NCBI GenBank assembly: GCA_044892505.1
Contig: CM097882.1
Span: forward strand, 13,516,430-13,580,000
Reading direction: 5' to 3'
DNA length: 63,571 nt
From: Schmidtea nova
Taxonomy: Eukaryota
Below the pieces are notes generated by a model. It saw only the letters and a list, made by a program, of their open reading frames with translations, was not told where the DNA came from and ran no database searches. Made by a program: the position numbers and the translations under genes. Below, piece after piece: positions 93 to 61,326 of the stretch (its first letter is position 1; the number at the start of each line of letters is the position of its first letter).

Positions 93-3000
93 TTATTGAA
101 ATAAATCATCTTCATCTTCGTCATCTTCTTGAATATCTTCATCTTCGGTAATTGAATCCCCCATAACTGTAAAACTTTCTCTACAATGTCCATAAGCAAT
201 ACTTTTATTTTTCTCAACCCAAAGTCTCTTATCATCGAGGTTAGTAAGTGCAATTTTTGAAAACTTATTAGTAAAAATTTGATGATTTTTACTCACAAAT
301 CGAGACTGCTCTACTGAAACTATAGTATTATTTCTATAACAATCAAGATAAGACCGATGCTTCAGTTTAGTATCTTTCAAACAGACGCCTTTAGCCTTTA
401 AACATTCCTTATCACCTAAAAGACTATAACATTTAGGTCTAAGAAAAACCCATTCCTTATATTTATGACCCTTATTTTCGTCTTTAAACTTTCCTATAAC
501 AGAATCAAGTTTTTTCGAATATAAAGAATGACTAGGGTCGTAATTCGATGTATCCAAAAGACAATCTCTAACCATCGCAGGTAACAGAACATCTAACCTA
601 CAATTCTTAATCTCCAAGAAGAAAGAATCAGTATCGCCTGCAACTATATTAATCTCACAGTTGAATTCATTGCGATATTTTTGCAATTCTTCATACTGGA
701 GTTGATACATTCTAAGTTTAGATAAATCCAGTACACTTTAGCCAATGTAGCTGGGTCTATCTAAACACACAGAGTCCTTATTAAGCAAGACAGAAATTAG
801 GTCATCGTCAATCATATAAGTTTTTCTAAAGGTAGGTTTTGATGTATATGTAATCAATTTTGATGCTGAATTACAAAGTCGTAAATTGAGTCTTTTCTTA
901 AGATTTTCGACAGTTTTTCCATAAAGACTATTATTTAAAAGTTTGTAATATTTTTTATCTAAAACAAACGATGAAGCTGCCCTAAGTTCAGTGTTCGTAT
1001 CAATATATTTTTTAAAGATGGGTTTCTGTTTGTACTGAACAGCCCGATGAACTCGTGTTATTTTAACACCCAAAGAAAGAAATAATTTTAAAAGTCTCCA
1101 ATGAAGAACATAGTTGAACTTTGGATAATGTGTCAACATTAACTTTTCAACTTTAGAATTGGGAGCACACATTCTTTCTGCCGCTACTGGAAAGTCATTT
1201 AATTTATCATGAATTTCAACTGGGATTACCAAGTCAACTTCAAATGTTACACCGATTGTTAAAAGTTCCAAGTCAACATCCATCAAATTAATTAATTTAT
1301 TTAATTTTTTCTCATCATTAATCCATTTAAATTTACCACAAGGTAATTTTTGGCTTAAGGCCCAACCGTACATATTATTAATGTCGATGTAAAGTAGTTC
1401 AGTCGTTTCGGAGGATACTACATGATGCTTGTTGACAAATGTCAAACCACCACGGATCCCCCCTTCGAAAAAATTATACATCTCCATATCCTGGAGCAAC
1501 TCAATAGGTTCTTCCAAGGTAAGAAGTGCAGAAGCCCACGACATACCTGGAATACCCAAGAAATTCAACGGTTCTAACCTATTATGAGAAATTGACTTGG
1601 CTCTAAACTGTTTGAAAAAGTCGGCAAGAAGAAAGACGTCAAGTTTAAGGTAGACCATCATGTAGTCACAAAGAGTTTGACAATTAGTTTCCCTCCAAAT
1701 AACTAATGCCTTGTCGTATTCAGCCTGCTTAACACCCTCCCAGATTGGTGGTAATTCATATGTTTCATTCAAGACTTCTAACGATGTTGCAAAATTATAA
1801 GGAAAAATACCCTTACAATCAACAATAGTACCACTGAATTCAGATCGCGTTAAAGGTAATGAAGTCAATGTTTTAACCGCATCATTTAAACTGGAGTTAA
1901 TAAACTGACAAGAGTCAATGAATTTAATTGTTAAATCACCGACTCTTGCAGATAAAGTAAGGAATTTTTCACTCGTAGTTGGAATACATGATATTTTCCA
2001 AGTTGAAAAGTTTGCTAATCCATATTTAAGAATATGGTGCATGTCATACCCTTTTAAATTATGAAACACAACCGGTAGTTCCTTACGAATCTGTCTAGTA
2101 AGATTACATTTTAAGCAAGCAGCTCCCAAGAATTCACCAGTGTAGTGATCATGGTCTCTGACTGGTTGTACTAAAGTTTTCCTACAGAGATAACAATTTG
2201 TAGATGAGGCAAAAGATATTTTATTTTCAAATGTCATAATAAGTGGTTTTTTGAAATTGTTTTTATAAAAAGGAAAAACAATTTCTTCACCTATATTGTT
2301 AATTTCAGCAAGAAAATTAGTAACGCAATCAAGACCTAAGAAACACTTGTAAATTTTTTCACCAGTGAAATTATTTACAAGTAAAAGACCGGCAGATATT
2401 GGGACATGTCTTTGAAAGTACTTATCATCAGCAGGTAAGATTGCCTCAAAATCGGCGTAAACAACAAAAGGTGGAGTAATTGTTTTGCCCCAATTATTAA
2501 ATGTCAAATAAGGATTTTTAGGCAAAGTATATAGAGTTGTGCCTAATTGATTTTTAGAACACAACTCTTGATGACGAACAAAAGAATCTTGATATCTAAA
2601 TCCATTCAAGCATCGATGGCACCATAAACTTTGAATACGAGTACCAGATATTGATTTATTGTCAAGATTTAAAAGCCTATCAAGATTGGTTACTGCTATA
2701 TAATGAAAAGAGTCACCATTTTGTAAAACAATCAAGTTAATAGGGATTCCGTCTACTACTTTCGACCTATGAATTATGTCAATACACGGATGTTTGAAAA
2801 CTTCAGGCTTAGTGTCTAGAATTCCAGATTCATCATATGAAAGTACGTTAATCGCATATCCCGGGTTTTTAGCTTCAAACTTTGGGATATTGCAAAGACG
2901 CATAGGCAAATCAGAAGGACTAAAGTTAACATCAGAAAGATTGTAATTACTGATCCTATGTTTATTTTTACGGCCAGATATCTCATCATATTTAATAATT

Positions 3001-4178
3001 ACCAAAACAGAATAGATAAAGCACAAGTCATCAGAATTCTGAACATTTACAACACAATGTTTTGATTTTAAAGATTCAGGAGTGTCAATACCACCGTAAC
3101 CTATCAACCTACTAATCTCAGAAAATTTGGTTAATATGAAATGAATTTCATTAATTTTATTAATTATCCAGTTACTGCCTCTATTATTAATTAATGTAAT
3201 TTTTTCATTAAGAATATTAATGCCATCGTCTATAAAGGTATCTGTGACAGGTTTTGCAGAGTTAGAAATAACTATAGTTTGAAAAGCACCATCTTTTTCA
3301 AACTCAACTTCGATGCAAAATTGAATTTTAACCGTTCCCATCGTTTCAATTACATTATTTAATTTATTAATTAAATTATCAGGTACAAACATGCTTTTTA
3401 AATTCAAGTTAGTTACAATCATTTTCACTATAGCATGTGATTTATTTAAATCAAATTTAACAACAGGTAAAATGGAGCCACCAACCTGTACTTCAGGAAC
3501 TAAAGAGTATTTATCGTCAGAAATTTTATCAAAAGAACCACCAATTTGAATATTATCGATAGGAACAAAAGAGTCTACAACCACAAAATCAGAAAGATTA
3601 TTTATATCAAGAATGTTATCATCATCAGGAATGATATCATTATCAAGAATGGTATCATTATCAAGAATGTTATCAACAGGAATGATATCATTACCAAGAA
3701 TGTTATCATCATCAGGAATGGTATCATTACCAAGAATGTTATCATCATCAGGAATGATATCATTATCAAGAATGGTATCATTATCAAGAATGTTATCAAC
3801 AGGAATGATATCATTACCAAGAATGTTATCATCATCAGGAATGGTATCATTACCAAGAATGATATCATCATCATCAGAAATTACAACTATATCTGAAGGA
3901 ACAACCGAATGAACAATTGAAGGATCAACTGAAGGAACAACTGAAGAAATATCATCAGAAAGAACTGACTTGTTAATTTTGATTGGGATTGGATTATTTT
4001 CATTACATTTTCTTTTAATCGGTAATTTAAAAATTGATTTTTTAGATGTTTTAAATTGTTCTAAATGATCGCAATGAGTATTGTAAAAGTCAATATACGA
4101 AGAGGACGATGTAGATTTGCAAAAAGGACAAATGTAGTAGGTTTTACAGTTATGAGGGTATGCATAATATTTTTCCAT
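93..4178 (-). pseudogene. polB: Protein-primed family B DNA polymerase with vOTU-like protease, C2H2 finger and endonuclease VII-like insert; single in-frame TAA at 738-740
   Basis: Motifs VVYADFEA, VFHNLKGYDMH, LYIDINNMYGWA, KLLNNSLYGKT, AGDTDS, FLRPKCY, KAKGV; NSDDLCF...HYIAV (OTU-like Cys/His); CYLC...RDHDH...CLKCN. ORFs 738-4355 and 93-710 are in one frame: DRPSYIG*SVLDLSKLRMY. First ATG at 4178; true start uncertain. Confidence 0.92.
3610..3870 (-). repeat. In-frame acidic tandem repeat in PolB N-terminal region (about 123-bp/41-aa period x2, 12-aa subunits)
   Basis: DDDNILGNDTIP DDDNILGNDIIP VDNILDNDTILDNDIIP occurs twice. Confidence 0.9.
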
Positions 4179-4487
4179 TAATTCATGGCATTTTACATCA
4201 TGAATTGTGGAGTTGCAATATTTTTGATATATATTGCCTATAAATTTTAAAAATAATATAAAAATAATGATAAAAATAATGATAAAAATTATGATAAAAA
4301 TAATGATAAAAATTATGATAAAAATATTATGATAAAAATTATGATAAAATATCAATGATGTATATCAAGTGTGTATACACACATTCAATTCAAAATATCG
4401 TAATATATATTTATTGATTATGATTGGTCAAAATAATTTAAAAATTTCTATATAAACGACTTATAAAATTAAAATAATCATTAAAAA

Positions 4488-5016
4488 ATGTATCAACTGA
4501 AAAGTAAGATTAATTAATTTTAAATGATTATTTTTTAATTTATTTTTTCTAGAATCGAAAAGAATGACAAAACAAGAAATAATGAAGATTATTCTTGAGG
4601 AAAATCCTATTTCTTCATCTAATTTGGCATTGAATTCACCAGTTCAATTCATGCAATACTCGATGGAGTATTTGAAATATCCAATCAAATATTCATTTAA
4701 AGTAATTAATTAAAAATTATTAAAATCTAATTAATATTATTTACAGGAACCTGTTACACTGAAACAATGTCAATACAATATTCAGGTTGGAAAAATCGGG
4801 GAAACTGATAGAAAGAATCTATCAGAAATATTATTGTTAATAAATAAAGATATTCAATTCAACGAGGAATTCACATATATGAACTGTAAAAAAGAAACAG
4901 ATTTAGGCAAATTAGATGATAATTCAATGTATCAAATTCAAATTATCTTACAAGGATTTAAACAAACTGAAAACGTGATAAAACCTATTTGGAAAATTAT
5001 TGATTTTCATGAATAA
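4488..5016 (+). CDS. Three-exon viral ORF (~144 aa), unknown function, possible OB-fold ssDNA-binding protein
   Basis: ATG 4488; GT-AG introns 4504-4552 and 4702-4746 join in frame to ORF 4834-5016 (MYQLKKSKRMTKQEIMKII...YSFK/EPVTLKQCQYNIQVG...IKPIWKIIDFHE). Confidence 0.75.
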
Positions 5017-5870: not shown

Positions 5871-5962
5871 AAATTCAAACATAAAAATTCACTTTTGTAT
5901 TAGTGAATACCATAAATAGAAAAAGTCGTTTTATAATAAAAGTCGTTTTATAATAAAAAATT

Positions 5963-6341
5963 TTATTTCATATATTTTAGCCAAGCTAAACAATGTTGCC
6001 CACAGGTTTTTGTCATTGGATTTTGATATCGAATTCTGTTATATTCTATTGGTTTTAACATTGACGATAATTTTTTCAATAATATCGGTGGATAATAAAA
6101 TCCCATTGGATCAAACACATATATTTTATCGGGTTTATTATAAATTGCAAGCCAATGTTCACCTTTGAGGTTTGATGATTGAGTATTGACAATCAATGCT
6201 TTATTCACATCTATATACGGTATTTTATCTAGAGGAAAAACTCCTAGAAATTCCGATCCAATCAATTTTCTAGCAATCTGATCTACCTGAATTGAACTAA
6301 AATCAATAAAATTTAATTATTAAAAATAAATCTTACTTCAT
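5963..6341 (-). CDS. Adenain-like (C5 family) maturation protease, two exons (intron 6297-6336)
   Basis: GEHWLAI, VFDPMG, YQNPMTKTCGQHC (His/Asp/Gln/Cys). Spliced start ATGAA/T gives MNSIQVDQIARKLIGSEFLGVF. Confidence 0.9.
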
Positions 6342-6404
6342 TTACTTTTTTAAAAAATAAATCTTACTTCATTTACTTTATTAATTAATTAAAATTAGTT
6401 TATA

Positions 6405-7631
6405 TTAAACGAGTATTGTTCGATTAGCTGTAATTTGTAATTCCTTTTCAAAAACTCCATATACAATTACAGAAACTGATTCAGTCAATGGTGTACCAAA
6501 TTTAATATCAAGTCTTAGATTACCTTGTTGAGGTAATTGACTTTGATTTAGATCAAAATCTGGAGCCAAAACGAAGGTGAAAAAAGGATATTTGCTTTTC
6601 CAATCTGATAAAGAAATACCACAATTCATACTCTTATTCAGGTAACCAAGGTTACGGACAATAGATTGCATATAACTAGTACTACAATTATCATTTTCAA
6701 AATCTTGAGAATATTTTTCACGATAATCACTTCCTTTCGATAAAGTTAATGATTTGACATTAAAATGATCGTAAATAGAATAAGTTTCAGTAAAAGAACC
6801 ACTATGTCTTTTATTTCCTTGAAATGCTACAAGAATAAAGTTTGGTAATCGTCTATCTCCAAAGATTTGTTCCTTATAAAATGAAGAAGAACCCATTGGC
6901 AATGAAAATTCTACAACTTCCTTATTTCTTATTGGGTAAATTGCATTTCTTGTACCAAGTCCAATTTGATGCCCAGCATAAACTGATGATTCTACTCGAA
7001 CTCTTCTAACCATTAATTTTGCCTCTAATAATTCAATTATAGGTTCAATTTTTGTACATGTTAAACTATTGGATGGATTTGATCTCGTCAATTTAATTTG
7101 AACACTAACACCTGGTAATAAATACTTGGGTTGTTCCATGAAATCGAAATGTAATGGAGAACAAATTGAAAATGGTTTTGATTTTGCAATCCATGCTTTT
7201 CTAGTAAGATCATGGTCATTGTATCCCATTGGAGTTAAAGATGTGTGTTTTGTATCACTATTGTAGTTGAGAATAGTTTCAATCATGGCTTTGTGTGTAA
7301 ATGTATCATTTCCTCCTTCAACTTTAGTAGAATTGAAAATTAATTCGGCTTCTTTAAAAAGAGTTTGGAAAAAGAAATTGTTGGGAGTAACATCAGCATC
7401 CAATCCTAAATTTTCACCCGATTTGTTTACAACTTTGACCTGAAGAGATAGTAAAGTATCGTTCAAATCTAAATATTCAGTTTGAGATCCGTTGATGTAA
7501 AATTGAATAGATGATGTCCCAGCATCTGTAATTGAATTTGTTGGGTAAATATCTTCAAATGCACCATGTTCAATTACTGCTTGTGGAGATGGTCTATCAA
7601 AAAGACATAATTCAGATTTTGCACTAATCAT
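6405..7631 (-). CDS. Major capsid protein (double jelly-roll, hexon-like)
   Basis: 408 aa, SELCLFDRP...EYLDLNDTLL...KYLLPGVSVQIKLTRS...GNLRLDIKFGTPL, Polinton MCP style; position in capsid block. Confidence 0.85.
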   Translation of the reverse strand: MISAKSELCLFDRPSPQAVIEHGAFEDIYPTNSITDAGTSSIQFYINGSQTEYLDLNDTLLSLQVKVVNKSGENLGLDADVTPNNFFFQTLFKEAELIFNSTKVEGGNDTFTHKAMIETILNYNSDTKHTSLTPMGYNDHDLTRKAWIAKSKPFSICSPLHFDFMEQPKYLLPGVSVQIKLTRSNPSNSLTCTKIEPIIELLEAKLMVRRVRVESSVYAGHQIGLGTRNAIYPIRNKEVVEFSLPMGSSSFYKEQIFGDRRLPNFILVAFQGNKRHSGSFTETYSIYDHFNVKSLTLSKGSDYREKYSQDFENDNCSTSYMQSIVRNLGYLNKSMNCGISLSDWKSKYPFFTFVLAPDFDLNQSQLPQQGNLRLDIKFGTPLTESVSVIVYGVFEKELQITANRTILV

Positions 7632-8035
7632 TTTTCAAATATTGTTCCATATCCTTTCATTCTTTTGTTTATATGTTTCTTCATATTTCTTTTTCGTTTA
7701 AGAATTCCGCCATTTTGTTTATTTTCAGTTTTATTTTCGTTAAACACATCAGTCACTTTACTAATTACTTGTGGCAAATGATGAATCACATCGGGCAATG
7801 AATCTTTAATTTCAGAAATGGCATTGGATTTTAGTGCAGGTAAAATCTTTGAATTATTATTTAACACATCATTGGCAGTTTTCATACCAAAATTTCCAAT
7901 ACGTCTAAGAATTGGTAATGCAAATCTACCTATCGTTTTCAACCAACCAGTTCCATATTGTTTACCTACAAAATACGGTAATTCTCCACCTGATTGGCTG
8001 TTGCTATAGAAACTGATAATATCTGGATTATTCAT
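7628..8035 (-). CDS. Putative protease-processed virion/membrane-active protein
   Basis: 135 aa; QSGG, QYGTG, QNGG motifs, amphipathic WLKTIGRFALPILRRIG, basic C-terminus; directly upstream of MCP. Confidence 0.6.
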   Translation of the reverse strand: MNNPDIISFYSNSQSGGELPYFVGKQYGTGWLKTIGRFALPILRRIGNFGMKTANDVLNNNSKILPALKSNAISEIKDSLPDVIHHLPQVISKVTDVFNENKTENKQNGGILKRKRNMKKHINKRMKGYGTIFEK

Positions 8036-9050
8036 TTATTTTACGGAAATGTAATGTCAAGTAAGTTTTGTCTTCTTTTGCAAATTTAACTATTTTTCCA
8101 CTGTCATCACGAATATTGATTTCAATATTGTTTATATATGTGGAACTGACCGGTAAATACATTGGATTTTTCTCAACAATTTGAACCAAATCACCCTTTT
8201 CATGTTTTTCAACCCAAACACATTTCAATAGGGGAACTGACATGTCACCAACAAGAATTGGTTGAATAATATTCGTATAGATGAACATTTGTTGATGAAG
8301 TTTTAAAACTTGTGGATAATATACGCCATCAATAATTTTGTCAAAGAATTCTTGTTCAACTAATCCTAACGAATTTGCTAAATTCCTACTAAATTTTACA
8401 CTAGTTATATCATCTTCAAGAATTAATTTAATTAATTTTCCTTCTTTAATATCAATCACTTTAAATGGATGTGGATAAAAAGTTTCAATTTGATCAGATA
8501 ATTCAGCAAGATTATTTATTATTAAATCGTCTTTGAAATTATCTGTGTATTCAACAGGAAAAGTATAAGTTATAGTAAACCGTATAGTATCATCAAGTTT
8601 TTTATTTTTATTTGCTGGAATTTTAATTTTGTTTAATTCATCATTAAATGTCACAGCTTTTTCTTGAAACCCTAATTTTTTAGCTTCATCAACACTATCA
8701 AATATTATTTGAAATGGAAAATATTTACAATTTACATTTAAAATATTGCCATCAATATACATTAAATAATAATTAGAATCGTGACTTATATCATATTCTT
8801 TCTTTTGTTGGTTAAAATTGAAATATTCATAACTAGAATGTAATTCATTTCTAGTAAATTTTATACTTGAACTATTATAAAATGGAAATTCATTGTACAC
8901 AAAAGTAAAATCCATAAGAGCAACTTCCCAACTACCATCCAAATAAATTGGGTTCTGATATTCAACATTGAATTTTCCAGCTTTATTATTGGGATGTGTC
9001 AATGGGCAAGAATTGCTTGGTAAATTAACATAAAAATCTTTTTTAATCAT
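8028..9050 (-). CDS. Minor capsid (penton-like) protein, paralogue 1
   Basis: FYVNLPSNSCP...PIYLDGSWEVAL N-terminus; MFIYTNII...VPLLK...MYLPV...IEINIRDDSG...LTLHFRK C-terminus. Confidence 0.85.
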   Translation of the reverse strand: MIKKDFYVNLPSNSCPLTHPNNKAGKFNVEYQNPIYLDGSWEVALMDFTFVYNEFPFYNSSSIKFTRNELHSSYEYFNFNQQKKEYDISHDSNYYLMYIDGNILNVNCKYFPFQIIFDSVDEAKKLGFQEKAVTFNDELNKIKIPANKNKKLDDTIRFTITYTFPVEYTDNFKDDLIINNLAELSDQIETFYPHPFKVIDIKEGKLIKLILEDDITSVKFSRNLANSLGLVEQEFFDKIIDGVYYPQVLKLHQQMFIYTNIIQPILVGDMSVPLLKCVWVEKHEKGDLVQIVEKNPMYLPVSSTYINNIEINIRDDSGKIVKFAKEDKTYLTLHFRKINE

Positions 9051-10080
9051 TTATTTTACGAAAATGTAGAGTCAAATGAGTCTTTGTATCTTTTGAAAAT
9101 TTAATTAATTTTCCACTGTCATCACGAATATTGATTTCAATGTTGTTTATAGTTGATGTTGAAATCGGCAAATACATTGGATTCTTTATTTCAATTTGTA
9201 CAACTTCGCCTTGGTCATATTTCTTGATCCAAATTGATTTTAGGAGGGGAACTTGTACATCTCCAACAGTCACTGGTTCAATAATGTTGCTGTAAATGAA
9301 CATTTGCTGATGAAGTTGTAAAATTTTGGGGATTTTTACACCAATTATTTCGGTATCAGTATATGTTTGTTTCTGTAGACCCAGAGATTTGGTTAAATTT
9401 GAATCAAAAGTAATTTTTGAAATATTATCCTGAAGAATAATTTTAACCAATTCATTATTGACAAGTTTCAATTTTTTAAATGGAGATGGATTAATTTTCA
9501 TTAAATATCCTTGTAATTCCGGTAATGACGTTATGAATAATTCATCTTGAAAATAATAATCATTAACAGTTTTAATGTCATAATTTATAAAAATTCCAAA
9601 TTGTTCAAGACTATTATCATTCGTGAATTTTGGTAATTTTAAACGACAATGATCATTTTCACTTGTAATTGATATATTTTCCAATCCAAAACTTTTTGCA
9701 TGTTCAAGATCTGGAAATGTAATTTTAAATGGAACATGTGGGCAAACAATCACTAAATAATTATATTTTTCAATAAATACATCAGTGTCTGAACTAGGTT
9801 GAGAAACTATAACTTGAATTGTTTTATTTTGATTATTAATTCTCAAATAACTAATTTCTTGAATTTCTCTTTTAGTTTCAATTTGAATAAAAGAATTACT
9901 ATAATACGGAAACAAATTATACACAAAAGTAAAATCAATCAAAGCAACTTCCCAATCGTCATTACTATTTAAATAAATCGGATTTTGAAATTCTACAATA
10001 AAATTACTAGCTTCATTATTAGGATAAATAAGAGGACATGCATTGCTAGGCAAAATCATATAAAACTGGTTTTCTTTCAT
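9043..10080 (-). CDS. Minor capsid (penton-like) protein, paralogue 2
   Basis: Same N- and C-terminal motifs as 8028-9050, divergent middle. Confidence 0.85.
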   Translation of the reverse strand: MKENQFYMILPSNACPLIYPNNEASNFIVEFQNPIYLNSNDDWEVALIDFTFVYNLFPYYSNSFIQIETKREIQEISYLRINNQNKTIQVIVSQPSSDTDVFIEKYNYLVIVCPHVPFKITFPDLEHAKSFGLENISITSENDHCRLKLPKFTNDNSLEQFGIFINYDIKTVNDYYFQDELFITSLPELQGYLMKINPSPFKKLKLVNNELVKIILQDNISKITFDSNLTKSLGLQKQTYTDTEIIGVKIPKILQLHQQMFIYSNIIEPVTVGDVQVPLLKSIWIKKYDQGEVVQIEIKNPMYLPISTSTINNIEINIRDDSGKLIKFSKDTKTHLTLHFRKIND

Positions 10081-10085
10081 AATAT

Positions 10086-11171
10086 TTATTTAATCAATTG
10101 TTTTTCAGATATCCAACTTGGAGTTTCATAGCCATGCCATTTAACGTAATATTGTTTATATTTCCCATCAGTTTTGGTTTTTAAAATCTTTTGAATTCTA
10201 AAAACTGTGGGAGCTGGAATAACTTGAAGTTCTTGTTCGTAGAATTTACCCTCGATTACATTGTTTTCATGATCGGAAATAGTATACATGACAGGATTTT
10301 GATTAGTATCAACATTTGAGATTTGATATACTTCATCACTCCAATTACTATCAAAATTTTTGATGAAGGGAGAAGCACTGATTTTACTCATTCTCACATA
10401 ATCGCCTACTTTATATTTCGGTTTTTTATTAATTGATTTTAATCTATCTTTTATCCATCCATCAAAATTATTATTTGAATATACATCGATAGGTTTCATT
10501 TTATTTAATCCCGAATGCGGTGAACGATTGTAACTGGAAATAATTTTCGGTAAAACATTTATCCATGTTTTGTTACCTTGATACACAAAAAACTTTTTCA
10601 AACGATCTCTTAAAGTTCGATTAAATCTTTCAACATGAGCAGCTTTGAATTGAGAAAATACAGAATAATGATTGATTTCTTTGATCACTTCTTTTACTTT
10701 GCTGTTATAAAACTCTTTTCCTAAATTAAAATTAATTAATTTTTAAAAATTTAATTTCTTACCCAAATCAGTTTGTAAATTTCGTGGCTTCCCATCTTTA
10801 AATAAAGATTCAATAGCCTCAGCCATTTCATTAGCAGATTTAGTTTTTGTTGGAATAGCTCGTGCATAACGGCTAAAAACATCAATACAAGTCAAAATAT
10901 ATTTGTAACCCTTGTTAATTTTAGAATAAGGAATCATTTCCATTAAATCCATTTGCCATAAATCGTTACCCCCAAAAGTTTTATATTTCCGTGTAGGAAA
11001 TCTTTTCAACATTGGTTTATTTAAACTATATGCCAATTGATCAGATAGCCATTTCTGAGTTTCATTCTTTGAACTTTTTATTCTTTTTGCCAATTTTTTG
11101 ACTGAACCAAAACCATCGGGATCTTTTGGGTTTGTCCATATCGTTTTTATATTCTTCATGATTTTCTTCAT
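10086..11171 (-). CDS. Retroviral-type DDE integrase with C-terminal chromodomain, two exons (intron 10721-10762)
   Basis: WQMDLMEM (D1), QTDLG/KEFYNS after splicing (D2), HVERFNRTL (E), YYVKWHGY chromodomain. The 42-bp GTAAG...TTTAG intron contains a stop. Confidence 0.92.
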
Positions 11172-11233
11172 TAATACAACAATTTGTTAAAATATTTAAA
11201 TCTATATTATGTTTATTCGGTTCAGAAATTTTA

Positions 11234-11563
11234 TTACCCATTTCTTAAAGATGAGATTGCGCTTATTGCTGATAATACTATTGGAATTAATGTACCGAGA
11301 AACCCACCCTTTTGTTTATATATTATTTTTCGCATAAGATTTCTATTTTTGGTATTCACTAATGACAAAAGTGAATTTTTATGTTTTTGTAGTTCAATTT
11401 TCTTTGATCTACTAATATTTACATTACCATGAACAATAAATAAAACGACTTCAAGTAAATCATCAATAACAAAGGGTGGGAAAGCTTGTAAAATTATCAT
11501 TCGCTTATTTGTTGGAGCTTTAACCAAAGCATTAAAATACGGTAAACTACGTTCAAATTTCAT
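11234..11563 (-). CDS. pX (mu precursor)-like core protein
   Basis: C-terminal KQKGGFLGTLIPIVLSAI resembles the adenovirus pX xGGFLPALIPIIAAAI motif. Confidence 0.65.
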   Translation of the reverse strand: MKFERSLPYFNALVKAPTNKRMIILQAFPPFVIDDLLEVVLFIVHGNVNISRSKKIELQKHKNSLLSLVNTKNRNLMRKIIYKQKGGFLGTLIPIVLSAISAISSLRNG

Positions 11564-11593
11564 GATTAAGATTTTTGTGTATATTTATTTCGT

Positions 11594-11755
11594 TTATAAT
11601 TTTATCCACTTCTTTACTTGTTTCTTTCTTTTACCAATCTTTTTGACAACTTTTTTAACTAATTTAGATTTTTGATCAACTTTTTTAAGAAGTTTTTGAT
11701 CAGCTTTTTGAACAGCTTCTTTATTTAACTTGACAATTACTTTTTTAAATGACAT
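11594..11755 (-). CDS. Small Lys-rich basic protein (53 aa), putative DNA-condensing core protein
   Basis: Hand-translated: MSFKKVIVKLNKEAVQKADQKLLKKVDQKSKLVKKVVKKIGKRKKQVKKWIKL; fills the gap between ATPase and pX-like gene. Confidence 0.6.
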   Translation of the reverse strand: MSFKKVIVKLNKEAVQKADQKLLKKVDQKSKLVKKVVKKIGKRKKQVKKWIKL

Positions 11756-11776
11756 TATTATTTCATTTATTTGTTT

Positions 11777-12400
11777 TCAATTTTGTTTATAAACCGTGAC
11801 TCCTTTTTCGTTAAATATATCCGTTCGGATACGTAAATCATCAGGACATTGTTGAGTAAAATCAAAGAATAAATATCCATGAGGAACTTTAGTAGCATCT
11901 TGAAATGAATTAATTAAGAATTTCCTATCATTAAGGTAAGCTTGTCTTGCTAAAAAATCAATAATTGTAGCATCTCTTGGGTTTTTGAATATAACCAAGT
12001 ATTGAACATTTAAATTACGAGTTCTGTGACTACCACCTTGATGAAATAAATTTTGAGTAATGAAAATTACAGTAACTCCTAAATGTCTACTAATTTTTGT
12101 GAATAAATTATTAAAATCTTTTTCTTTATTTGCTTCTTGGTACAAATCATCGATAATTATAACATCGCCCTGACGTAATCTAGATGACCAGTTTTTATCA
12201 AACCCTTTTATAATTGTCATTTTTAATTTACAGAATTGATCTTGAGTCAGTCCATGTTCTTCATCAGCTCCTCTATGCCAGTAAATTTTATTGAATTTTG
12301 ATTTAAACATTTTTGATTGCAACAATTTACATACAAATAATGTTTTTCCACTACCACTTGGGCCCACTATTTGATAAACTGCATCATTTCTTAATTCCAT
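11777..12400 (-). CDS. A32/FtsK-like DNA packaging ATPase
   Basis: Walker A GPSGSGKT, Walker B IIIDD, RH...FITQNLF, YLVIFKNPRD. Confidence 0.92.
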   Translation of the reverse strand: MELRNDAVYQIVGPSGSGKTLFVCKLLQSKMFKSKFNKIYWHRGADEEHGLTQDQFCKLKMTIIKGFDKNWSSRLRQGDVIIIDDLYQEANKEKDFNNLFTKISRHLGVTVIFITQNLFHQGGSHRTRNLNVQYLVIFKNPRDATIIDFLARQAYLNDRKFLINSFQDATKVPHGYLFFDFTQQCPDDLRIRTDIFNEKGVTVYKQN

Positions 12401-12456
12401 TTTTATTTAATTAATTAATTAATTTAATATTGTTTATATTTATTCAATTTATAAAA

Positions 12457-12939
12457 ATGATAAGTAATATTAATTATAAGGGCAAGTGTTTAGTTCCAAA
12501 CATGATATTTCCTGTTGGAAAACCCCAGCAAGTTATAGATAGGAGCGGGAAGTACCCTATTTTATTTTTCAGATCGGGAAAATGCCGTGTAATGGGTTGT
12601 AAGCAACCGTTAAAACCAGATGATTTGAAATATAAAATTTCCGATTTAAAAATTCAATCGATCACTATAACATTGGATATGGGTAAATCCATAAATTTAT
12701 ACGAATTGCAAAATAAAACAGAGTGCTGGTACGAACCCGAAATATTTCCAGCTTTAAGATTAATAAATTATAACCCTATTTGTATTAATATTTTTTCAAG
12801 TGGAAAAGTTGTAATATTAGGAATTAAAACATTGGATTATTTTAATCAAGTAAATGAAATTAAAAATTATATTAATTCATTAATTAATAATGAATTAATT
12901 GATGAAAAATATCTCGATTTATTATTTAATTTTGTTTAA
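12457..12939 (+). CDS. TATA-binding protein (TBP)-like protein encoded by the element
   Basis: Two TBP half-repeats: LFFRSGKCRVMG and KIQSITITLD...YEPEIFPAL...IFSSGKVVILG. First ATG at 12457. Confidence 0.85.
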   Translation: MISNINYKGKCLVPNMIFPVGKPQQVIDRSGKYPILFFRSGKCRVMGCKQPLKPDDLKYKISDLKIQSITITLDMGKSINLYELQNKTECWYEPEIFPALRLINYNPICINIFSSGKVVILGIKTLDYFNQVNEIKNYINSLINNELIDEKYLDLLFNFV

Positions 12940-12974
12940 ATACATTGTTATTTTACAAATCCATATTTTTGAAA

Positions 12975-13360
12975 ATGTCTAAAAGTAAGTATTATTTTTA
13001 ATTAACTATATTATTAATATTTTTTATTTAGCTTATTTATTTGAAGTGGTCCTGAAGAAAATTCAAGAATTATATCCAAAAATAAAAGATTCTTTGGATT
13101 ATTGTGCGCCAGAGTTATTGGTTCATAAGATATACAAGCTTACTGGGATCAATATCGAACAATTGCTCGAGATTCACTACGATATGGTGCTAGGAGCTGG
13201 TGTCAAGTGCGTTGAAAATTGCATAGTTTGCAATGATTCACTAAGAGTATCCTGTGTAAACGGATGTGCATGCTGCCATGATTTTAAAAGAGATCATTCG
13301 GTGCATATCTTAATGTCAGAAATGCGTAAAGCATATTATAACGACATTTATAATTTATAA
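12975..13360 (+). CDS. Cys/His-rich viral ORF, two exons (intron 12985-13031)
   Basis: ATG TCT AAA A/gtaagt...tttag/CT TAT TTA TTT GAA GTG joins in frame to ORF 13046; CxxxCxxC...CxxxCxCCH. Confidence 0.7.
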
Positions 13361-14179
13361 TAAAGTTTTGTGATTTAGTTGTTCTTTATTTCATAATTTT
13401 TCAAAGTTTTGTGATTTAGTTGCTCTTTATTATTTTCAAAGTTTTTTCAAAGTTATTATTATTTTTCTAAGTTTTTTCAAAGTTTATTATAATTATNNNN
13501 NNNNNNNNNNNNNNNNNNNNNNNNNNNNNNNNNNNNNNNNNNNNNNNNNNNNNNNNNNNNNNNNNNNNNNNNNNNNNNNNNNNNNNNNNNNNNNNNNNNN
13601 NNNNNNNNNNNNNNNNNNNNNNNNNNNNNNNNNNNNNNNNNNNNNNNNNNNNNNNNNNNNNNNNNNNNNNNNNNNNNTATTATTATTCAAACTGACCAAA
13701 AAATATAAAAATAAATTTAAATTTAAATAAATTATTAAAAATAAATTAAAAATAAATATTAATTTAAATAAATTAANNNNNNNNNNNNNNNNNNNNNNNN
13801 NNNNNNNNNNNNNNNNNNNNNNNNNNNNNNNNNNNNNNNNNNNNNNNNNNNNNNNNNNNNNNNNNNNNNNNNNNNNNNNNNNNNNNNNNNNNNNNNNNNN
13901 NNNNNNNNNNNNNNNNNNNNNNNNNNNNNNNNNNNNNNNNNNNNNNNNNNNNNNNNNNNNNNNNNNNNNNNNNNNNNNNNNNNNNNNNNNNNNNNAAAAT
14001 AATAAATTAAATTGACTTCATTTAAACAAAAAATTAAAATTAAAAAATTCACTTCATTTAAACAAAATTAAAAACTAAAAATTCACTTAATTTAAACAAA
14101 ATAAAAAATTTTAAAAATTCACTTCATTTAAACAAAAAAAAATTTTTTTTTGGTTGGGGGGGGTAAAAATTTTTTTTAG

Positions 14180-48427: not shown

Positions 48428-49333
48428 TGTTCGTCTGTGTGTGCTTTTTGATTTTCTATTCGCATCTGTATGCGCTTAATTTCGAAATCTTATTTTGCTC
48501 GCGTCTGTGTGCGCGATTTTGTCTGGGTAATTTTTTAGATTGTTGTTGATTGAGTTATTTATTGATTTTTTGCTTTAGAGGAATTTATTGTTAGATTGGT
48601 TGTTTTATTATTGCAGTTTTTTGAGGGAATTTAGATTTTTTGATTCAAGAATTGAAATTAATTTAAATACAACTATGAATGAAAGCGAAAACGAAGTAGA
48701 AAACGATGAAGTTAATAATACTGATTTATCTGACGACGATTTAACAGAAAATGATGAAAAAGAAGATGATGATATGAATACAGATGATAATGAAAATAAT
48801 CCAGCAAAAGAAGACACAATGCTTTCTGAAAACAAAGATAACAATTCTATAGAAGCTGATGTGGAAATCTCAGAAATTAACTCCCATATCAGATGTCGCT
48901 TTCGCAATGATTCAAATGAACTCTTCAGATGTCGCTTTCGCAATGATTCAAATGAACTCTTCAGATGTCGCTTTCGCAATGATTCAAATGAACTCTTCAG
49001 ATGTCGCTTTCGCAATGATTCAAATGAACTCTTCAGATGTCGCTTTCGCAATGATTCAAATGAACTCTTCAGATGTCGCTTTCGCAATGATTCAAATGAA
49101 CTCTTCAGATGTCGCTTTCGCAATGATTCAAATGAACTCTTCAGACTGAACCTTCTTACACTGATTAATAATAAAATCCTTGGAATCGTGTTACTTTTTA
49201 TCAAAAACATTAATTTGATTATAGCTCGAACATTTGGGCCTTTTGGTCAAATTGTCTGTGATTTTGGATCAAATCATGTAGTTATGAAAACAAATAAAGA
49301 TTCTCACTCGGACGTTCAATCAATGATTTTTCA
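48428..49333 (+). repeat. 5' LTR (906 bp; seven 36-bp repeats at 48890-49141)
   Basis: Matches 53699-54568 except for one extra repeat unit. Confidence 0.95.
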
Positions 49334-52300
49334 TGGTAGCAGAGCGTGGTTCCCACCGGGGGGCCACGCACACTCTGGAAAGCCGTTAGTCGACCTTTTT
49401 ATTAAACATTCTTTTATGCCTTTTGTAAAAATATTAAAATGGGTTAAATTTGTAATTGGAGTATGGACCAACATTCCCTCCCAGGCGCGTTTTGAATGGA
49501 AAGTGAAAGTTGGAATGGCTTGGCCACCGGATATTGTGAAAGACGGCTGCTATGGGCCCCAGCATTCTTTTAAATTCCGGGAAATGTTGCAACAAGATAA
49601 AATTTTGAAAGGCTTAGAACCTTTTGTAGGAATAAGGGGAGATAAAAGTAATCATAAAAAGTTCTATAATCAAATTGTTAAAAATATTAAATTGGGTAAT
49701 CATGAAGACCGGGTAAATATGAATAGAATAGGGAAATTATTGAGTTTTTATTCAATAGCAAGTGGTGATGAAAGGACAAGTCTAAAGGATAATAGTTCGC
49801 GAGTGAAAGAAAAGGAAACGGAGTCCACTTTACATTTTGTTTTGCGATTGAGACGTAGAATACAGATTTTTGTTAAGACTCTAGCAGGTAAAACCATAAC
49901 ATTGGAAGTTGAACCGAGGGACTCTATTGAGAAAATAAAAGCCAGGATCCAAGAGAAAGAGGGAATCCCGCCTGATCAACAGAGATTGATATTTGCAGGT
50001 AAACAATTAGGAGGCGAAAGAATCCTGTCAGATTACCACATTCAAAAGGGGTCTACTATTCATCTGGCACTGAGATTGTGTGGAGGGAATGATGAAGAGG
50101 AGGAATTAGAGGAAGGATTGAGAAAGAAGAGGAGTGTCAAATATAGATTGACGAAATTAAGAAACAGGTGGATGAATGATATGTTGGCAGAAGATGCAAC
50201 ACATGTCCTTGATGAATATCAGGAAGCTATGGAAAGTGCCATAGAGAGTTTTGAAAGATTGGTGGATATTAGTAAAAGATTAGGAAGGTCAGATACAACA
50301 ACGGGGCTAGAATCGGACTTACAAGAGATAGAAAATAAGAACGAGAAGGTGGAAGAGTTAATTTCGTCAAAGGCCAATCAGTCAGTTAGGTCGGATGACA
50401 GCAATACAATTAAAGAGATCAATGGAAATGAAACGAAGAAAAGACTAGAAAAGATGCAGAAGATACGGATCCAGATATTTGATGGACACCAAAAAGAATA
50501 TGAAAGTTGGAAAGCCGCTTTCCATACGTGTGTTGATAGTGCCCATGGAGATGATGATGAAAAGATGTTACACCTTCGATCCTATCTGAAAGGTGAACCG
50601 CTAAGGCTGATCGAAAATTTAGGATTTTCTGCAACGGGTTATAAAATGGCAAAAGAAAAGCTTGATAAAAGATATGGCGGGGAAGAACGAAATTACTTAG
50701 CTGCTCTGGAAGATATCGACAGGTTCCGACCCGTGCGTGAAAATGAAATGCTGGAAATCGAGGCGTTTGTTGGGCTATTGGAAACGCTAGAAGTTAGAAT
50801 TATTAATAATAGACGAGAGGGCGAAATGAACAATAGTTACTTATTGAAGAGATGCCTGCAAAAGCTACCCTGCTCGCTGCTATACAAGTGGAAGAAAGAC
50901 TTTAAGGAGAGAAAGGTAACCGAATGTATCCAAGATTTGAGAAATTGGTTACAAGATGAAGTCGAGCTGTTAAGATCAACAAGAGAAACCCTTTATGGAG
51001 TCGGGGATGGCAATAGAAGAAACGATTGGAAGAGACAGGATGGACCGTCAAGAGAACTTGGGAATCCAAGGCAAGGGAACCGGACACTTGTTGGGCAAGT
51101 AGCAGATTGGAAGGAAGACAAGACAAACATACCAAGAGACGGATTGTTGAGTACAAAGTTGAAGTGTTGGAAATGCAAGGAAAATCATTACTTGGATCAA
51201 TGCAGAGAATTCAAAGAAATGAACCCCGCAATGCGACGTAAAGCAGTAGGAGACTGGAAGTTATGCTTTAATTGTTTAAAGTCTAATCATGTAGCGTCGG
51301 AATGTCGAAAGGCTTCATTCTGTACTAGAGAAGGGTGTAAGCTGAAACACAGTAACCTACTGCATGTGGATCAGTCAGAGTCCAAAAGGAAGGAAAACAC
51401 ATTGATGTCGGCTACTAAAGATGAATTATTAAAAAGGGAGCGAAAATACCTAAGCTTGAGGACGATACCGATCTACCTTGAGCATGGAGCGAAGAAAATT
51501 AAAGTAAATGCGCTGTTAGACGATGCAAGCTCCATTAGCTACATAAGTCAGAGCATTGCAGACGAGTTGGGTCTGAAGGGGAAAGAGGAAATAGTTCCTG
51601 TGAGCGTCATCGGAGGTCATATTCAAAATATGACAACAAGAATAGTCACGATGACGTTGATAAGTTATGATCAGAAGATGAGGAAAAAGTTTACAGCTGC
51701 AGCGGTGAAGAGTGTAACCGGGGAAATGCGAGTGATAAATTGGGCAAAGGAAAAATGGAAATGGGAACATCTAAAGGATATACGGTTTCCAATGCTTGAT
51801 GAACGGCAAGTGGTGCAAGTTCTTATCGGAGCCGATTATTTAGGGTTGCAAAGAGCGTTGAAGGAAGTGGATGGGAAGATGAATGAACCGATTGCGAGAT
51901 TAACGCCGTTAGGCTGGACCTGTGTTGGTAATACGTCGATAAGAAAGCTGGGGAGTCACCAGAGTAATTTTACGCGAACGTTTTTTGGCCAGAGAGACGG
52001 ATTGGAAGACCAAATGCAAAGGTTTTGGAAAATTGATGAAATCGGGCTAAAGGAATATATCGAGAGTTTTGCACTTAAAGCTCAGGAAGAAGTTTTTAGT
52101 GAAAATCAAACTGGTGATAGCGATTTTAATTCAAATCAAAATGAAGATAACACGAAAAAGTATAATATGGCTGGTGAAATGATTGACAACTCTGAGTCGG
52201 TTGATATTGCAAGCGAGGAAGGAATAAATACTTCGTCAAACGAATTAGTGCGAAATGTAATGACGGAAATTGAATCGACAATGGTAGTAAAAGATGAGCG

Positions 52301-53573
52301 GGCAGTAAATGAATATAATTTTGAAGAAAACTGCATTGTCGATGAGAAAATTGTGGAAAATATAAATGATATCGAAGAAACTTGTAAAATTGAGGAAATT
52401 ATTGGAGATAACTCTTTTAATGGGGAAAATATTGAGCATGGAACAGTTGAAAATTCCAAAGTTGATAAAAGTGACGATGAAAAGGTTAATGATATTGAAA
52501 CAAATCTAGAAGATGATGGCAAAATTACCAAATATGTCAGTAATAAAGGTGAAAAAGTAGAAACGATTGAACGAATAAATTGTCCGGTTATAATTGCAGA
52601 GAGAACAGGTAGTGAACAGTCAGCATTTCTTCTAATGAAAAGTAAAGATGCAATTAGTGGCAATAAAATGGGATCATTTGACATGGTTGTGAAAGGTTCA
52701 ACTGGTGATGATGAAGTTCTGGCTGATAAGTCGGATTTAGTAATACAACTTCATTCAAAGATAGAAGATCTTGAAAATAAAATAAAAACGGGCGAATTGG
52801 AATATAAAAGGGAAATTAATGAATCAAAAGTAAAATTTGCGAATTTAGCTAAAACTGTAGAAACGTTATCAGCTAAGATAGAAAAGGTAAATGATATTAA
52901 TGGAAAATTGGCAACTGTAAATCGGGAACTAAAAATAAAGATTAAACGAAATGAAATCGATTTAAATGAGCTATCTGCGAAAGGAAGGCATTTAAATGTG
53001 GAGATGAAAGAAAAGGAAAATGATTACCTAGAAAAACTTCGAGAGGCTAATGACGAAATCGCTTCTCAGCAAACCTTGGTGAAGGATTTGACGGAAGTAA
53101 ATGGTAATTTAATAATTAAACTAAATGGCAATCTGGGAATGATGGAAGATAATAAATTAAACTCGAAGTCTTTAAAGATAGAAGAAGATTTCTTGAAAAT
53201 GGGACTTAGTACTAAAAAGGAGTTGGTTAAAGAAGTCTCAAGGAAATTGGGAAAGAATTTTGAAGAAGAAATTTATATTTCGAACAATATAATGAATATT
53301 GATGAAAAATTAGTCGAACCCAAAAGAGATGGCGAATTAATTGAGAGTCAGTTGATTAAATTAGAAGTTAATGGAAAGGAAAATAGAACGAAATGGTGTC
53401 TGCTGCATGGTCCGGTTGTGGGGCGTGATGGGGAAATTACAAAGGTTCGGATATTGTGCTATACAGCTGCAAAATTCATAAATAAATGCATCATGCAAGA
53501 GGCATGGATGCAAAGAATTGATTGGAAGGAAATACTTCCTCAGGAGGTGATGAAAAAGGAAAACCAATGTTGA
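48675..53573 (+). CDS. 1632-aa fusion: acidic region, 12-aa repeats, UBA1-like fragment, linker, ubiquitin, Gag (DUF1759-like, CCHC), aspartic protease, acidic/coiled-coil, pol scraps
   Basis: First ATG at 48675 in ORF 48588-53573; [35 protein letters not shown]...[34 protein letters not shown]. Confidence 0.9.
49203..49329 (+). other. Ubiquitin-activating enzyme E1 (UBA1)-like fragment inside the LTR (second copy 54438-54564)
   Basis: [31 protein letters not shown] resembles UBA1 [20 protein letters not shown]. Confidence 0.7.
49334..49351 (+). promoter_or_regulatory. Primer binding site, tRNA-iMet type
   Basis: TGGTAGCAGAGCGTGGTT directly after the LTR-terminal CA. Confidence 0.9.
49860..50087 (+). 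other. Ubiquitin domain (76 aa, ends LRLCGG), preceded by a partial ubiquitin tail ending LRLRRR
   Basis: [19 protein letters not shown]...LALRLCGG; 59/76 identical to canonical ubiquitin by hand count. Confidence 0.97.
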
Positions 53574-54568: not shown

Positions 54569-55308
54569 ACATGAATTAAATTCGATCATAGTGTTTTGAC
54601 GCGGTCTTGTCAGCTCATTCACGACGCATGAAAAACAACGCTGTGAGTGACGTATTGATGTCCAGATCCTGTTGAGCCAAATATTAGGGGTGGCAGAAAC
54701 AACTCTTGTGGATGCGATTACTTACCCATCTGGCTTTTAAGGAACAGGCAATACCGCTTTTTACGACTGGCAATATTAAAACATATTGTCTTCATCTTGT
54801 CTTCTCTTATATTTATACAAATTAATAATAAGTTATCATAATTAAAAAAAATTATATTAAAAATAACAATACTTAGAAAAATAGTAATTAACAAAAATAA
54901 TTATGATAAAAATAATTAATAAAAATAAGAAACGTGTGAAAATAAAATAATAATAAATAATAAAAATAAAAATTAGAAACGCTGTAACTTTTATTTAACC
55001 GAAGTTAAAATAAAATAATTTTTATTCACAATTGTTTTTATAAGTTGGCTTAATTTTCAGTCACTGTTTTCTATTTTCTTTTGTTTTGCCAATATTATCC
55101 GCGATATCTTTAGTTATTATTGTAGTGCCTCCGTCATATTCATAATATAAATATTTATATATAAATTAAATAAAATAAAATATTATAAGATTATATATAT
55201 ATATATATATTATCATAATTATCTTTTTTCACCTTTGATCTTTTTTTATTATTATTATCAATAATTCTCATAATGACTATAGATCAAAATTTTTTTTTAT
55301 AAACAATA

Positions 55309-55341
55309 ACACAATATTTCGGCACAGCCTTTATCAAGTGT
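55309..55341 (-). ncRNA. Variant minimal hammerhead motif in pLTR
   Basis: Reverse complement of 61231-61263. Confidence 0.65.
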
Positions 55342-55440
55342 GTATTTCTATCGTTATATTTACTTAATCCTAAATAGTAGCCTTAATTATTTTTTTAATA
55401 TTTTATAATGATTTTATTGGATGAAAAAATTTATTTTATT

Positions 55441-58042: not shown

Positions 58043-58079
58043 AATGACTATAGATCAAAATTTTTTTTTATAAACAATA

Positions 58080-58112
58080 ACACAATATTTCGGCACAGCC
58101 TTTATCAAGTGT
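58080..58112 (-). ncRNA. Variant minimal hammerhead motif in pLTR
   Basis: Reverse complement of 61231-61263. Confidence 0.65.
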
Positions 58113-58548
58113 GTATTTCTATCGTTATATTTACTTAATCCTAAATAGTAGCCTTAATTATTTTTTTAATATTTTATAATGATTTTATTGGATGAAAAAA
58201 TTTATTTTATTTTAATTTTTTTGTGCGAATTGAATGTTGATGGACGGTTTGTATTTTTTTATGAAAAAAGTCTCGGAAGCTAATCTTTGTAATGAATTTT
58301 TGAATCCCTCTTGTAGGATCTGGCATTTTGTTTCTTCTATAGATGGAGTTGTTTTATGTACTTTTTCCCAGTGTTCGTAATAATTACTGGTTTTGATTTT
58401 AGTATGTTCATTAAGTCGGGTGCGAAAAGTTCTATGTGTTTCTCCTATGTAAGTAGCGTCACATTTTTGACAAGAAAGTTTATATACTATATTTTTGGAA
58501 AAGCAAAAGCATCGGGTTGTGGAACGACAAAGACATTTATGTTTGGAG

Positions 58549-61131: not shown

Positions 61132-61321
61132 AATAAAATAAATTTTTTCATCCAATAAAATCATTATAAAATATTAAAAAAATAATTAAGGCTACTATTT
61201 AGGATTAAGTAAATATAACGATAGAAATACACACTTGATAAAGGCTGTGCCGAAATATTGTGTTATTGTTTATAAAAAAAAATTTTGATCTATAGTCATT
61301 ATGAGAATTATTGATAATAAT

Positions 61322-61326
<5 letters not shown>
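58576..61326 (+). mobile_element. Penelope-like element copy C, inverted relative to A, ORF open to 61131
   Basis: Near-identical to copy A; 5' pLTR truncated at the inversion junction; 3' pLTR runs into (TA)n. Confidence 0.93.
61231..61263 (+). ncRNA. Variant minimal hammerhead motif in Penelope pLTR
   Basis: ACAC TTGATAA A GGC-TGT-GCC GAAA TAT T GTGT; TTGATAA replaces CTGANGA. Confidence 0.65.

Follow-up and report, generated by a model that had tools for sequence, protein, structure and literature searches.

The window analyzed here, a 63,571-nt stretch of the Schmidtea nova genome (assembly GCA_044892505.1, contig CM097882.1, positions 13,516,430 to 13,580,000), carries a 15,395-bp Polinton whose left end lies beyond the window (L031:8828). 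The terminal 228 nt of the element are 91% identical, its ends read AGTAGAGTAG...CTACTCTACT, and TTTAAA (6-bp TSD) is present on both sides. The terminal inverted repeats (TIRs) with AGTAG ends, the 6-bp TSD, the protein-primed PolB (pPolB), the rve integrase, A32 ATPase and C5 protease, the putative capsid genes and the 15.4-kb length are those of a Polinton/Maverick (adintovirus). Beyond what is typical of such elements, it possesses a TBP-like gene, termed mini-TBP here, and a dedicated sequence box (Table 1).

Table 1. Genes, terminal repeat and box sites of the Polinton within the window
Feature	Position	Strand	Basis or remark
Protein-primed PolB with Endonuclease VII-like domain	93..4178	-	Pfam DNA_pol_B_2; two ORFs, 738-4178 and 93-710
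TATAAACG box before SSB-like multi-piece gene	4451-4458	+	Sequence scan
Multi-piece gene, last frame 4735-5016	4451..5016	+	Probably OB-fold ssDNA-binding-like, from reading sequences; no Pfam match
Adenain-type protease frame	5963-6316	-	Pfam Peptidase_C5 1.9e-05
TATAAACT box before protease frame	6397-6404	-	Sequence scan
Putative major capsid protein, 408 aa	6405..7631	-	25-55% conserved in related loci; no Pfam match
Conserved 135-aa ORF	7628..8035	-	Conservation across related loci
TATAAACA box, 42 nt before major capsid ATG	7666-7673	-	Sequence scan
Two paralogous putative minor-capsid-like genes, 345 and 340 aa	8028..10080	-	Position and conservation in Polinton loci; no Pfam match
TATAAACA boxes, one per minor-capsid-like gene, 101 nt before next gene	9144-9151, 8129-8136	-	Sequence scan
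TATAAACA box upstream of minor capsid 1	10153-10160	-	Sequence scan
Integrase and chromodomain, two ORFs (10743-11171; 10086-10499)	10086..11171	-	Pfam rve, Chromo
Protein X / mu-like core protein, 109 aa	11234..11563	-	Pfam Adeno_PX 1.1e-05
TATAAACA box inside Protein X gene, upstream of integrase region	11313-11320	-	Sequence scan
TATAAACG box, 35 nt before pX-like gene	11591..11598	-	Sequence scan
Lysine-rich ORF, 53 aa	11594-11755	-	Open reading frame
A32-like packaging ATPase, 207 aa	11777..12400	-	Pfam Pox_A32 6.8e-07
TATAAACA box, 36 nt before 53-aa lysine-rich ORF	11784..11791	-	Sequence scan
Divergent intergenic region, 56 bp	12401..12456	.	Between mini-TBP ATG and ATPase ATG
TATAAACA box, 38 nt before ATPase ATG	12431..12438	-	Also 18-25 nt before TBP ATG, other strand
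mini-TBP gene	12457..12939	+	160 aa; complete C-lobe with YEPE stirrup (E93, E95); N-lobe without helices H1, H2
Cys-rich ORF downstream of mini-TBP gene, frame 12989-13360	12975..13360	+	Sequence; probably spliced
Right terminal inverted repeat, ending ...CTACTCTACT, then TSD TTTAAA	13996..14222	.	Terminal comparison

The putative capsid genes were recognised from their size and order and from how they are conserved between loci, and the Pfam scan of both minor and major genes gave no match. In the window copy, PolB is split by a stop codon between its two ORFs; an 18-nt tandem repeat lies in its N-terminal part. The last frame of the SSB-like gene was conserved in 22 TBP-bearing regions, and a homolog of the Cys-rich ORF was seen only in a second TBP-bearing family of the same genome. 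A 42-nt GT-AG intron-like sequence ends the first integrase ORF (10701-10742, minus strand) and is presumably spliced; similar short sequences, identified from sequence alone, occur in the protease (6320-6370, minus) and Cys-rich (12985-13030, plus) genes. Such intron-like sequences suggest nuclear transcription by Pol II. Among the element ORFs scanned there was no Pfam match to an RNA polymerase or to TFIIB, a search that very divergent forms could escape. Four sequencing runs of unrecorded kind gave flat contig coverage over 5900-13400, which has no bearing on expression.

Elsewhere in the window we observed an ORF (24803-25987, minus strand) that joins a prenyltransferase domain to an all-alpha piece of ribonucleotide reductase, a 1,632-aa Gag-like ORF (48675-53573, plus strand; DUF1759, aspartyl protease, zinc knuckle) with HSP90 and ubiquitin pieces, and a perfect 2.4-kb inverted duplication (55246-61326) with reverse-transcriptase ORFs on both strands.

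A minimal TBP fold with an altered DNA face

The mini-TBP matched a single Pfam family, TBP (PF00352; E = 5.5e-17), scoring 61.8 bits where the cut-off is 22.9; two stretches aligned at E <= 1, the better one being residues 64-130. The same family was matched at E <= 0.001 by 123 of 124 members of the mini-TBP family, and all 35 sequence matches of mini-TBP in the PDB were TBP or TBP fusions. The structure was modeled with AF2 on the 124-sequence family alignment, which gave a pLDDT of 94.8 and a pTM of 0.83; single-sequence AF2 reached a pLDDT of 38. A Foldseek search of the PDB with this model returned 44 matches at E <= 0.001, every displayed row of which was TBP, and VIA-align superposed residues 1-145 of the model on residues 66-240 of yeast TBP (1ytb; Z 12.6, rmsd 3.1 A, 145 aligned). 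The predicted structure is therefore, by AF2, Foldseek and VIA-align, the two-lobed TBP saddle.

The DNA-binding sheet is retained in the model, and the two lobes differ. The C-lobe is whole, and the N-lobe keeps strands S1, S3, S4 and S5 but has lost H1, S2 and H2, so that the H1 and H2 helices found in both lobes of canonical cellular TBP are present in only one. The linkers measure 13 and 19 aa, compared with 21 and 32-33 aa in canonical TBP. Set against cellular TBP (PF00352; PDB 1ytb, 1cdw, 1ais), the saddle is the same (Z 12-13, rmsd about 3 A over 145 residues), whereas the core is about 30 residues shorter and 26-30% identical. The initial annotation had described a 160-aa protein with one near-complete and one shortened TBP repeat, and both this description and the TBP fold that it predicted for profile and structure searches were borne out. 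These data confirm that the gene encodes a real, conserved, Polinton-encoded minimal TBP-fold protein.

We compared the DNA face using yeast numbering from Table 1 of PMC12529657 and from PMC1636458, with the register taken from alignment and structure superposition. Among the 124 family members, F116 (124), F190 (123), F207 (121), P191 (106) and N69 (106) were retained, and these residues and both stirrup glutamates are shared with cellular TBP. The residues replaced relative to cellular TBP are F99, V71, V122, T124, N159, V161, I194, V203 and L205, many of them in nearly fixed form: V122 to R (122/124), T124 to M (124/124), F99 to P (115/124), L205 to N (121/124), N159 to S or T (124/124), V203 to C (93/124), I194 to R (92/124) and V71 to N (87/124). 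The mini-TBP of the window thus has three of the four phenylalanines, N69 with S at N159, and M and L at T124 and T215, rather than the four Phe, two Asn and two Thr of the canonical face. The missing phenylalanine is F99, where the hhalign and MAFFT alignments are ambiguous but neither places a Phe. Three of the altered positions, I194, V203 and L205, are those whose mutation changes the specificity of yeast TBP in TBPm3 (PMC1636458). The overall pattern reads as re-specification of the DNA face, not as decay. The family also evolves under purifying selection, with dN/dS values of 0.05-0.57 in 83 of 83 listed pairs, which are non-independent.

TFIIB contacts TBP through two C-lobe glutamates according to PMC7221094, and E93 and E95 occurred together in 110 of 124 family members, the window protein included, as a feature of the sequence only. 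The same paper places the contacts for TFIIA, TAF1, Brf, Mot1 and NC2 in a basic N-lobe patch, mostly on H2, the helix that this subclade has lost.

A widespread Polinton-associated family

A 24-mer from the mini-TBP gene occurred 1,341 times in the 1.25-Gb genome (reversed control, 0), and the best 150 of 18,973 candidate copies, chosen for similarity, were 99-100% identical and stop-free. Thirty sister copies were 94-98% DNA-identical to the window, so the element family is young and abundant. The zero amino-acid differences among these 30 copies were discounted as a selection artefact of the search. A second Polinton family of the same genome (C2, about 25.244 Mb; L108, L121-L123) carries a mini-TBP that is 52% identical to that of the window (dN/dS 0.25); its TBP and ATPase genes likewise lie head to head, 93 bp apart, and it shares the box.

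Beyond this genome, the initial search revealed 30 relatives at 41-73% identity, and a profile search of 50%-identity representatives returned 56 clusters at E <= 1e-30. Of 69 metagenome loci, 37 carried one or more Polinton core genes on the same contig, most of the others were short, and five weak hits were probably ordinary TBPs. Scanning IMG/VR gave one canonical-like locus with the TBP and none with the ATPase, and an Atlas search with the homologue P0007 returned generic TBP clusters only. A tree of 93 rows was built from 78 family, 6 eukaryote-like, 4 archaea-like and 5 giant-virus-like sequences, the labels being assigned by reading sequences. All 78 family rows, 21 of them with a known Polinton context, fell together on one side of a branch with 100/100 support, apart from this small outgroup sample. 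The mini-TBP gene is a widespread Polinton-associated family and not a peculiarity of the window element, and the tree places it in a separate Polinton-associated clade.

Recent capture of a host TBP was rejected on two grounds: the family occupies a long branch of its own, and the TBP of the host is encoded by a different, canonical gene split by introns; the genome also holds TBP-like loci. Longer family members (L078-L093; representatives P0132 and P0135) retain H1 and part of H2. Both linkers were long in 30 of 112 members and both short in 64, and the trimmed forms make up a nested subclade (support 97/85).

The initial annotation had the gene divergent from the packaging ATPase, with 56 bp between the two ATGs on opposite strands. 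That distance is exact in the window and varies among sister copies, 29 of 30 of which had a spacing of 56-71 bp (mode 60); the 30th gave no ATPase start. The divergent arrangement held for both families of this genome but did not extend further: among 28 related loci with both genes, 23 had them in the same orientation and 1 had them convergent, and in the remaining 4 they were divergent and about 0.4-1.7 kb apart. Across related loci, the TBP gene followed MCP, followed PolB or preceded the ATPase. A conserved head-to-head layout was accordingly rejected, and the layout is lineage-specific.

An 8-bp box upstream of element genes

We scanned de-duplicated 130-nt upstream regions, excluding the last 12 nt, and took expectations from dinucleotide shuffles. 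This analysis revealed YATAAAC upstream of 58 of 67 structural and integrase genes in related loci. The motif was found before the ATPase in 15 of 19 cases (0.8 expected; 18 of 19 when the last 12 nt were counted), pX in 6 of 7, the integrase in 12 of 14, the minor capsid gene in 10 of 12, the 135-aa ORF in 6 of 6 and the major capsid gene in 9 of 9. In contrast, it preceded none of 42 TBP genes (1.6 expected). A canonical TATAWAWR box was present before 19 of these 42 (5.1 expected, maximum 10), at 35-47 nt from the ATG in 15 of 19; no canonical TATA box occurred within the scanned span in the other 23, nor at 35-47 nt before the mini-TBP ATG of the window. The box lay 32-38 nt before the ATPase in 12 of 18 cases, about the distance of the TATA boxes of the TBP genes. 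It also preceded one long PolB ORF (L078, 1/1), and none was found within the window PolB.

Within the window, 8 sites occurred on the coding strand and 0 on the opposite strand in 6.5 kb, with 13 in the other 47.7 kb, and all 29 sister copies in which an ATPase start was identified retain the ATPase box. Analysis of 69 distinct sites showed a pyrimidine at position 1 in 63 and A at position 8 in 60, with free flanks; this constrained width of 8 bp fits the size of a TBP site. The codons ATA AAC for Ile-Asn occurred near gene 3' ends, where the box lies within the upstream gene, in 26 of 37 cases, compared with 10 of 88 elsewhere. The first base of the box varies between T and C, and L080-L089 often carry CATAAACA; no covariation of this base with TBP residues was seen, the P191 position being unchanged. 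As a candidate target of the mini-TBP, the box is statistically clear.

The reader of the box might instead come from the host, be it TBP/TFIID, a TBP paralogue or a forkhead protein, leaving the mini-TBP a separate or auxiliary job, which we consider unlikely. TATAAACA is one base off a canonical TATA box, and TBP and TBP-like loci are present in the host genome; however, under host TBP position 7 should drift to A or T, and C was present there in 35 of 40 TATAAA-x-A sites. The core ATAAACA likewise fits the forkhead consensus RYAAAYA. Forkhead proteins prefer GTAAACA, and their sites are not strand-restricted, unlike the box. GTAAACA occurred twice compared with 60 occurrences of ATAAACA, all 60 in the sense orientation and 0 antisense, which disfavours a forkhead site as the identity of the box. 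Any host reader would also have to accommodate the canonical boxes that the TBP genes of the same elements use instead, and the near absence of the box from TBP-less Polintons in the same nucleus (1 of 28 genes), a control that is weak because its four loci, of one or two families, are related and not independent lineages.

The TBP-less family (L113-L120) was located at C1:252.70-252.72 Mb, C1:255.14 Mb, C3:104.58 Mb and C2:266.57 Mb, and in one case it sits within a TBP-bearing element. In this family many genes begin right after TATA-like runs (TATAAAA-ATG), not YATAAACA.

A proposed promoter switch

We propose that the mini-TBP acts as a one-protein promoter switch, predicted from sequences and models to bind YATAAACA and to recruit host TFIIB and Pol II, and place the probability of this reading at roughly 0.65. 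Its gene would first be transcribed by host TBP/TFIID from a canonical TATA box, and its product would then bind YATAAACA before the genes for packaging, capsid proteins, protease and integrase. Position 7 of the box is a C, a base that cellular TBP disfavours there and that the rewired N-lobe (V122 to R, T124 to M, F99 to P, V71 to N) may accommodate. Fixed changes are most numerous in the N-lobe, and this C would lie opposite that lobe, as judged from the C-lobe mutations of TBPm3, which act on base pair 2; yeast TBPm3 itself disfavours C at positions 6-8 (PMC1636458). Given TATAAACA, CATAAACA, TATAAAAG and TATAAATA, the mini-TBP would prefer C at position 7, and host TBP would not. The C-lobe stirrup would recruit host TFIIB and Pol II, and loss of H1 and H2 would let the protein escape TFIIA, TAF1, Brf1, Mot1 and NC2, allowing it to act independently of TFIID and without eviction. 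The outcome would be an early-to-late switch, although the label 'late' is too narrow, since the box also precedes the integrase, the SSB-like gene (4451) and one PolB ORF (L078).

Several observations count against this scheme. Among them are the lack of a canonical TATA box before the window mini-TBP gene and 23 of 42 related ones, the missing F99, and the variation of the first box base without a matching change at P191. Viral TBPs also need not use host TFIIB, as the other viral TBPs described in PMC7221094 and PMC12529657 have lost host-TFIIB contacts. No dedicated element-encoded partner was seen, none of the recurrent neighbours being TFIIB-like. A complex prediction of mini-TBP with a TFIIB core 98% identical to that of the host, run with alignments unused and DNA absent, gave a score of 0.21 (mark 0.34), which weighs neither for nor against the scheme. 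The host TFIIB (L126 / P0208) is itself divergent: no other relative exceeds 57% identity to it, and Schistosoma and cestode proteins are the nearest named sequences. In the window lineage the ATPase box overlaps the mini-TBP core promoter, and we speculate that its occupancy could repress the TBP gene in a negative feedback; the idea stays speculative because the sister family has a spacing of 93 bp and the distance is not conserved elsewhere.

The initial annotation had suggested that the protein redirects host Pol II to AT-rich element promoters or acts as a dominant-negative. The first proposal gained indirect support, with the amendment that the promoters are not merely AT-rich but share the 8-bp YATAAACA. 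The second fared poorly, as the DNA face has acquired a new, almost invariant set of residues instead of decaying. A decoy that causes host shut-off, by titrating TFIIB away from the host or by blocking its TATA promoters, and that plays no part in driving element genes would suit a protein that keeps the TFIIB glutamates while its TFIIA and TAF1 surfaces are gone; such a role is nevertheless improbable, leaving both the near-invariant non-canonical DNA face and the element-specific box unexplained in a genome that holds 1,341 matches to the gene. A decoy effect could, however, be a side effect of the promoter switch. Least probable of all is a role outside transcription, in which the mini-TBP would bend AT-rich DNA at a replication origin, during integration or for packaging at the termini. 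Such a role might be favoured by the position of the gene, head to head with the ATPase in two of this genome's families and beside or near it in many loci, but it sits poorly with a gene position that varies among loci, a retained TFIIB stirrup and boxes that precede genes and are not in the termini.

The promoter switch that we favour has a functional counterpart in the TBP mimics of beta- and gamma-herpesviruses (KSHV ORF24, EBV BcRF1), which serve late genes with TATTWAA promoters (PMC12529657). As in that system, a viral TBP fold with a more polar DNA face is accompanied by a variant TATA box before structural genes (58/67, compared with 0/42 for TBP genes) and, as proposed here, by host Pol II. 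BcRF1 was a weak fold match to the mini-TBP model (E 3.5e-3). ORF24, by contrast, is described as a 752-aa multidomain protein of a six-protein complex that binds Pol II directly and has four phenylalanines but not the TFIIB glutamates (PMC12529657); the mini-TBP is a lone 160-aa TBP core with both glutamates and three phenylalanines, an architecture unlike that of the herpesvirus proteins (ORF24, BcRF1 and UL87), which are large and multidomain, bind Pol II through an N-domain and DNA through a C-terminal domain, and lack the TFIIB glutamates. By analogy, the ORF24 system is a works-like parallel only and not an orthologue.

The best BFVD match of the model was the Heterosigma akashiwo virus TBP (E 2.1e-8, 18% identity). 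Nucleocytoviricota encode their own RNA polymerase. Their TBPs resemble the mini-TBP in having a viral TBP fold that has lost the N-lobe regulatory signatures, and Nucleocytoviricota with a TBP mostly carry their own TFIIB with diverged adapter contacts (PMC7221094). Unlike this TBP-TFIIB pairing, the window element gave no TFIIB or polymerase Pfam match, and the family lies apart from the 5 giant-virus-like rows of the tree, as it does from the 6 eukaryote-like and 4 archaea-like rows (100/100).

A 'TBP' label has appeared for MELD viruses with an adintovirus-like PolB, as a figure-legend abbreviation in a non-animal section (Starrett et al. 2021, PMC8502044). It likewise denotes a TBP-like gene in a Polinton-related element, may or may not belong to the mini-TBP family, and comes in that legend with no structure, distribution, promoter or mechanism; it lowers the novelty of the gene alone. 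In term look-ups, TBP, TATA and TFIID were absent from the main texts of PMC8097293, PMC11131425, 10.1101/2023.08.22.554363 and 10.64898/2026.10.13.758929, and TBP and TATA from that of PMC11296320. The main text of PMC7221094 does not mention Polinton, Maverick or virophage, and its text-searchable supplements contain neither these terms nor 'adinto'. The literature searched held no account of the box-protein pairing, which subscription journals, Repbase annotations, figures and bioRxiv supplements may mention; the mini-TBP family and its box are apparently undescribed in print beyond a label.

On a wider scale, we see an even chance that a broad animal Polinton clade uses the smallest known viral transcription switch, in which a single 145-160-aa TBP that has shed its co-factor face and rewired its DNA face would pair a private 8-bp box with borrowed host TFIIB and Pol II in a herpesvirus-like early/late programme. 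The finding bears on how Polinton/Maverick elements control their capsid genes and on whether particles are still made, and a dedicated box with an element-encoded reader makes that control testable. The pair separates self-sufficient elements from TBP-less ones that possibly depend on other signals. As a natural minimal TBP, the mini-TBP offers a test of which TBP surfaces Pol II initiation can do without, and with its box it is a candidate natural orthogonal TBP-promoter pair. If the reading is true, a herpesvirus-like early/late programme would operate in elements that have never been seen as particles.
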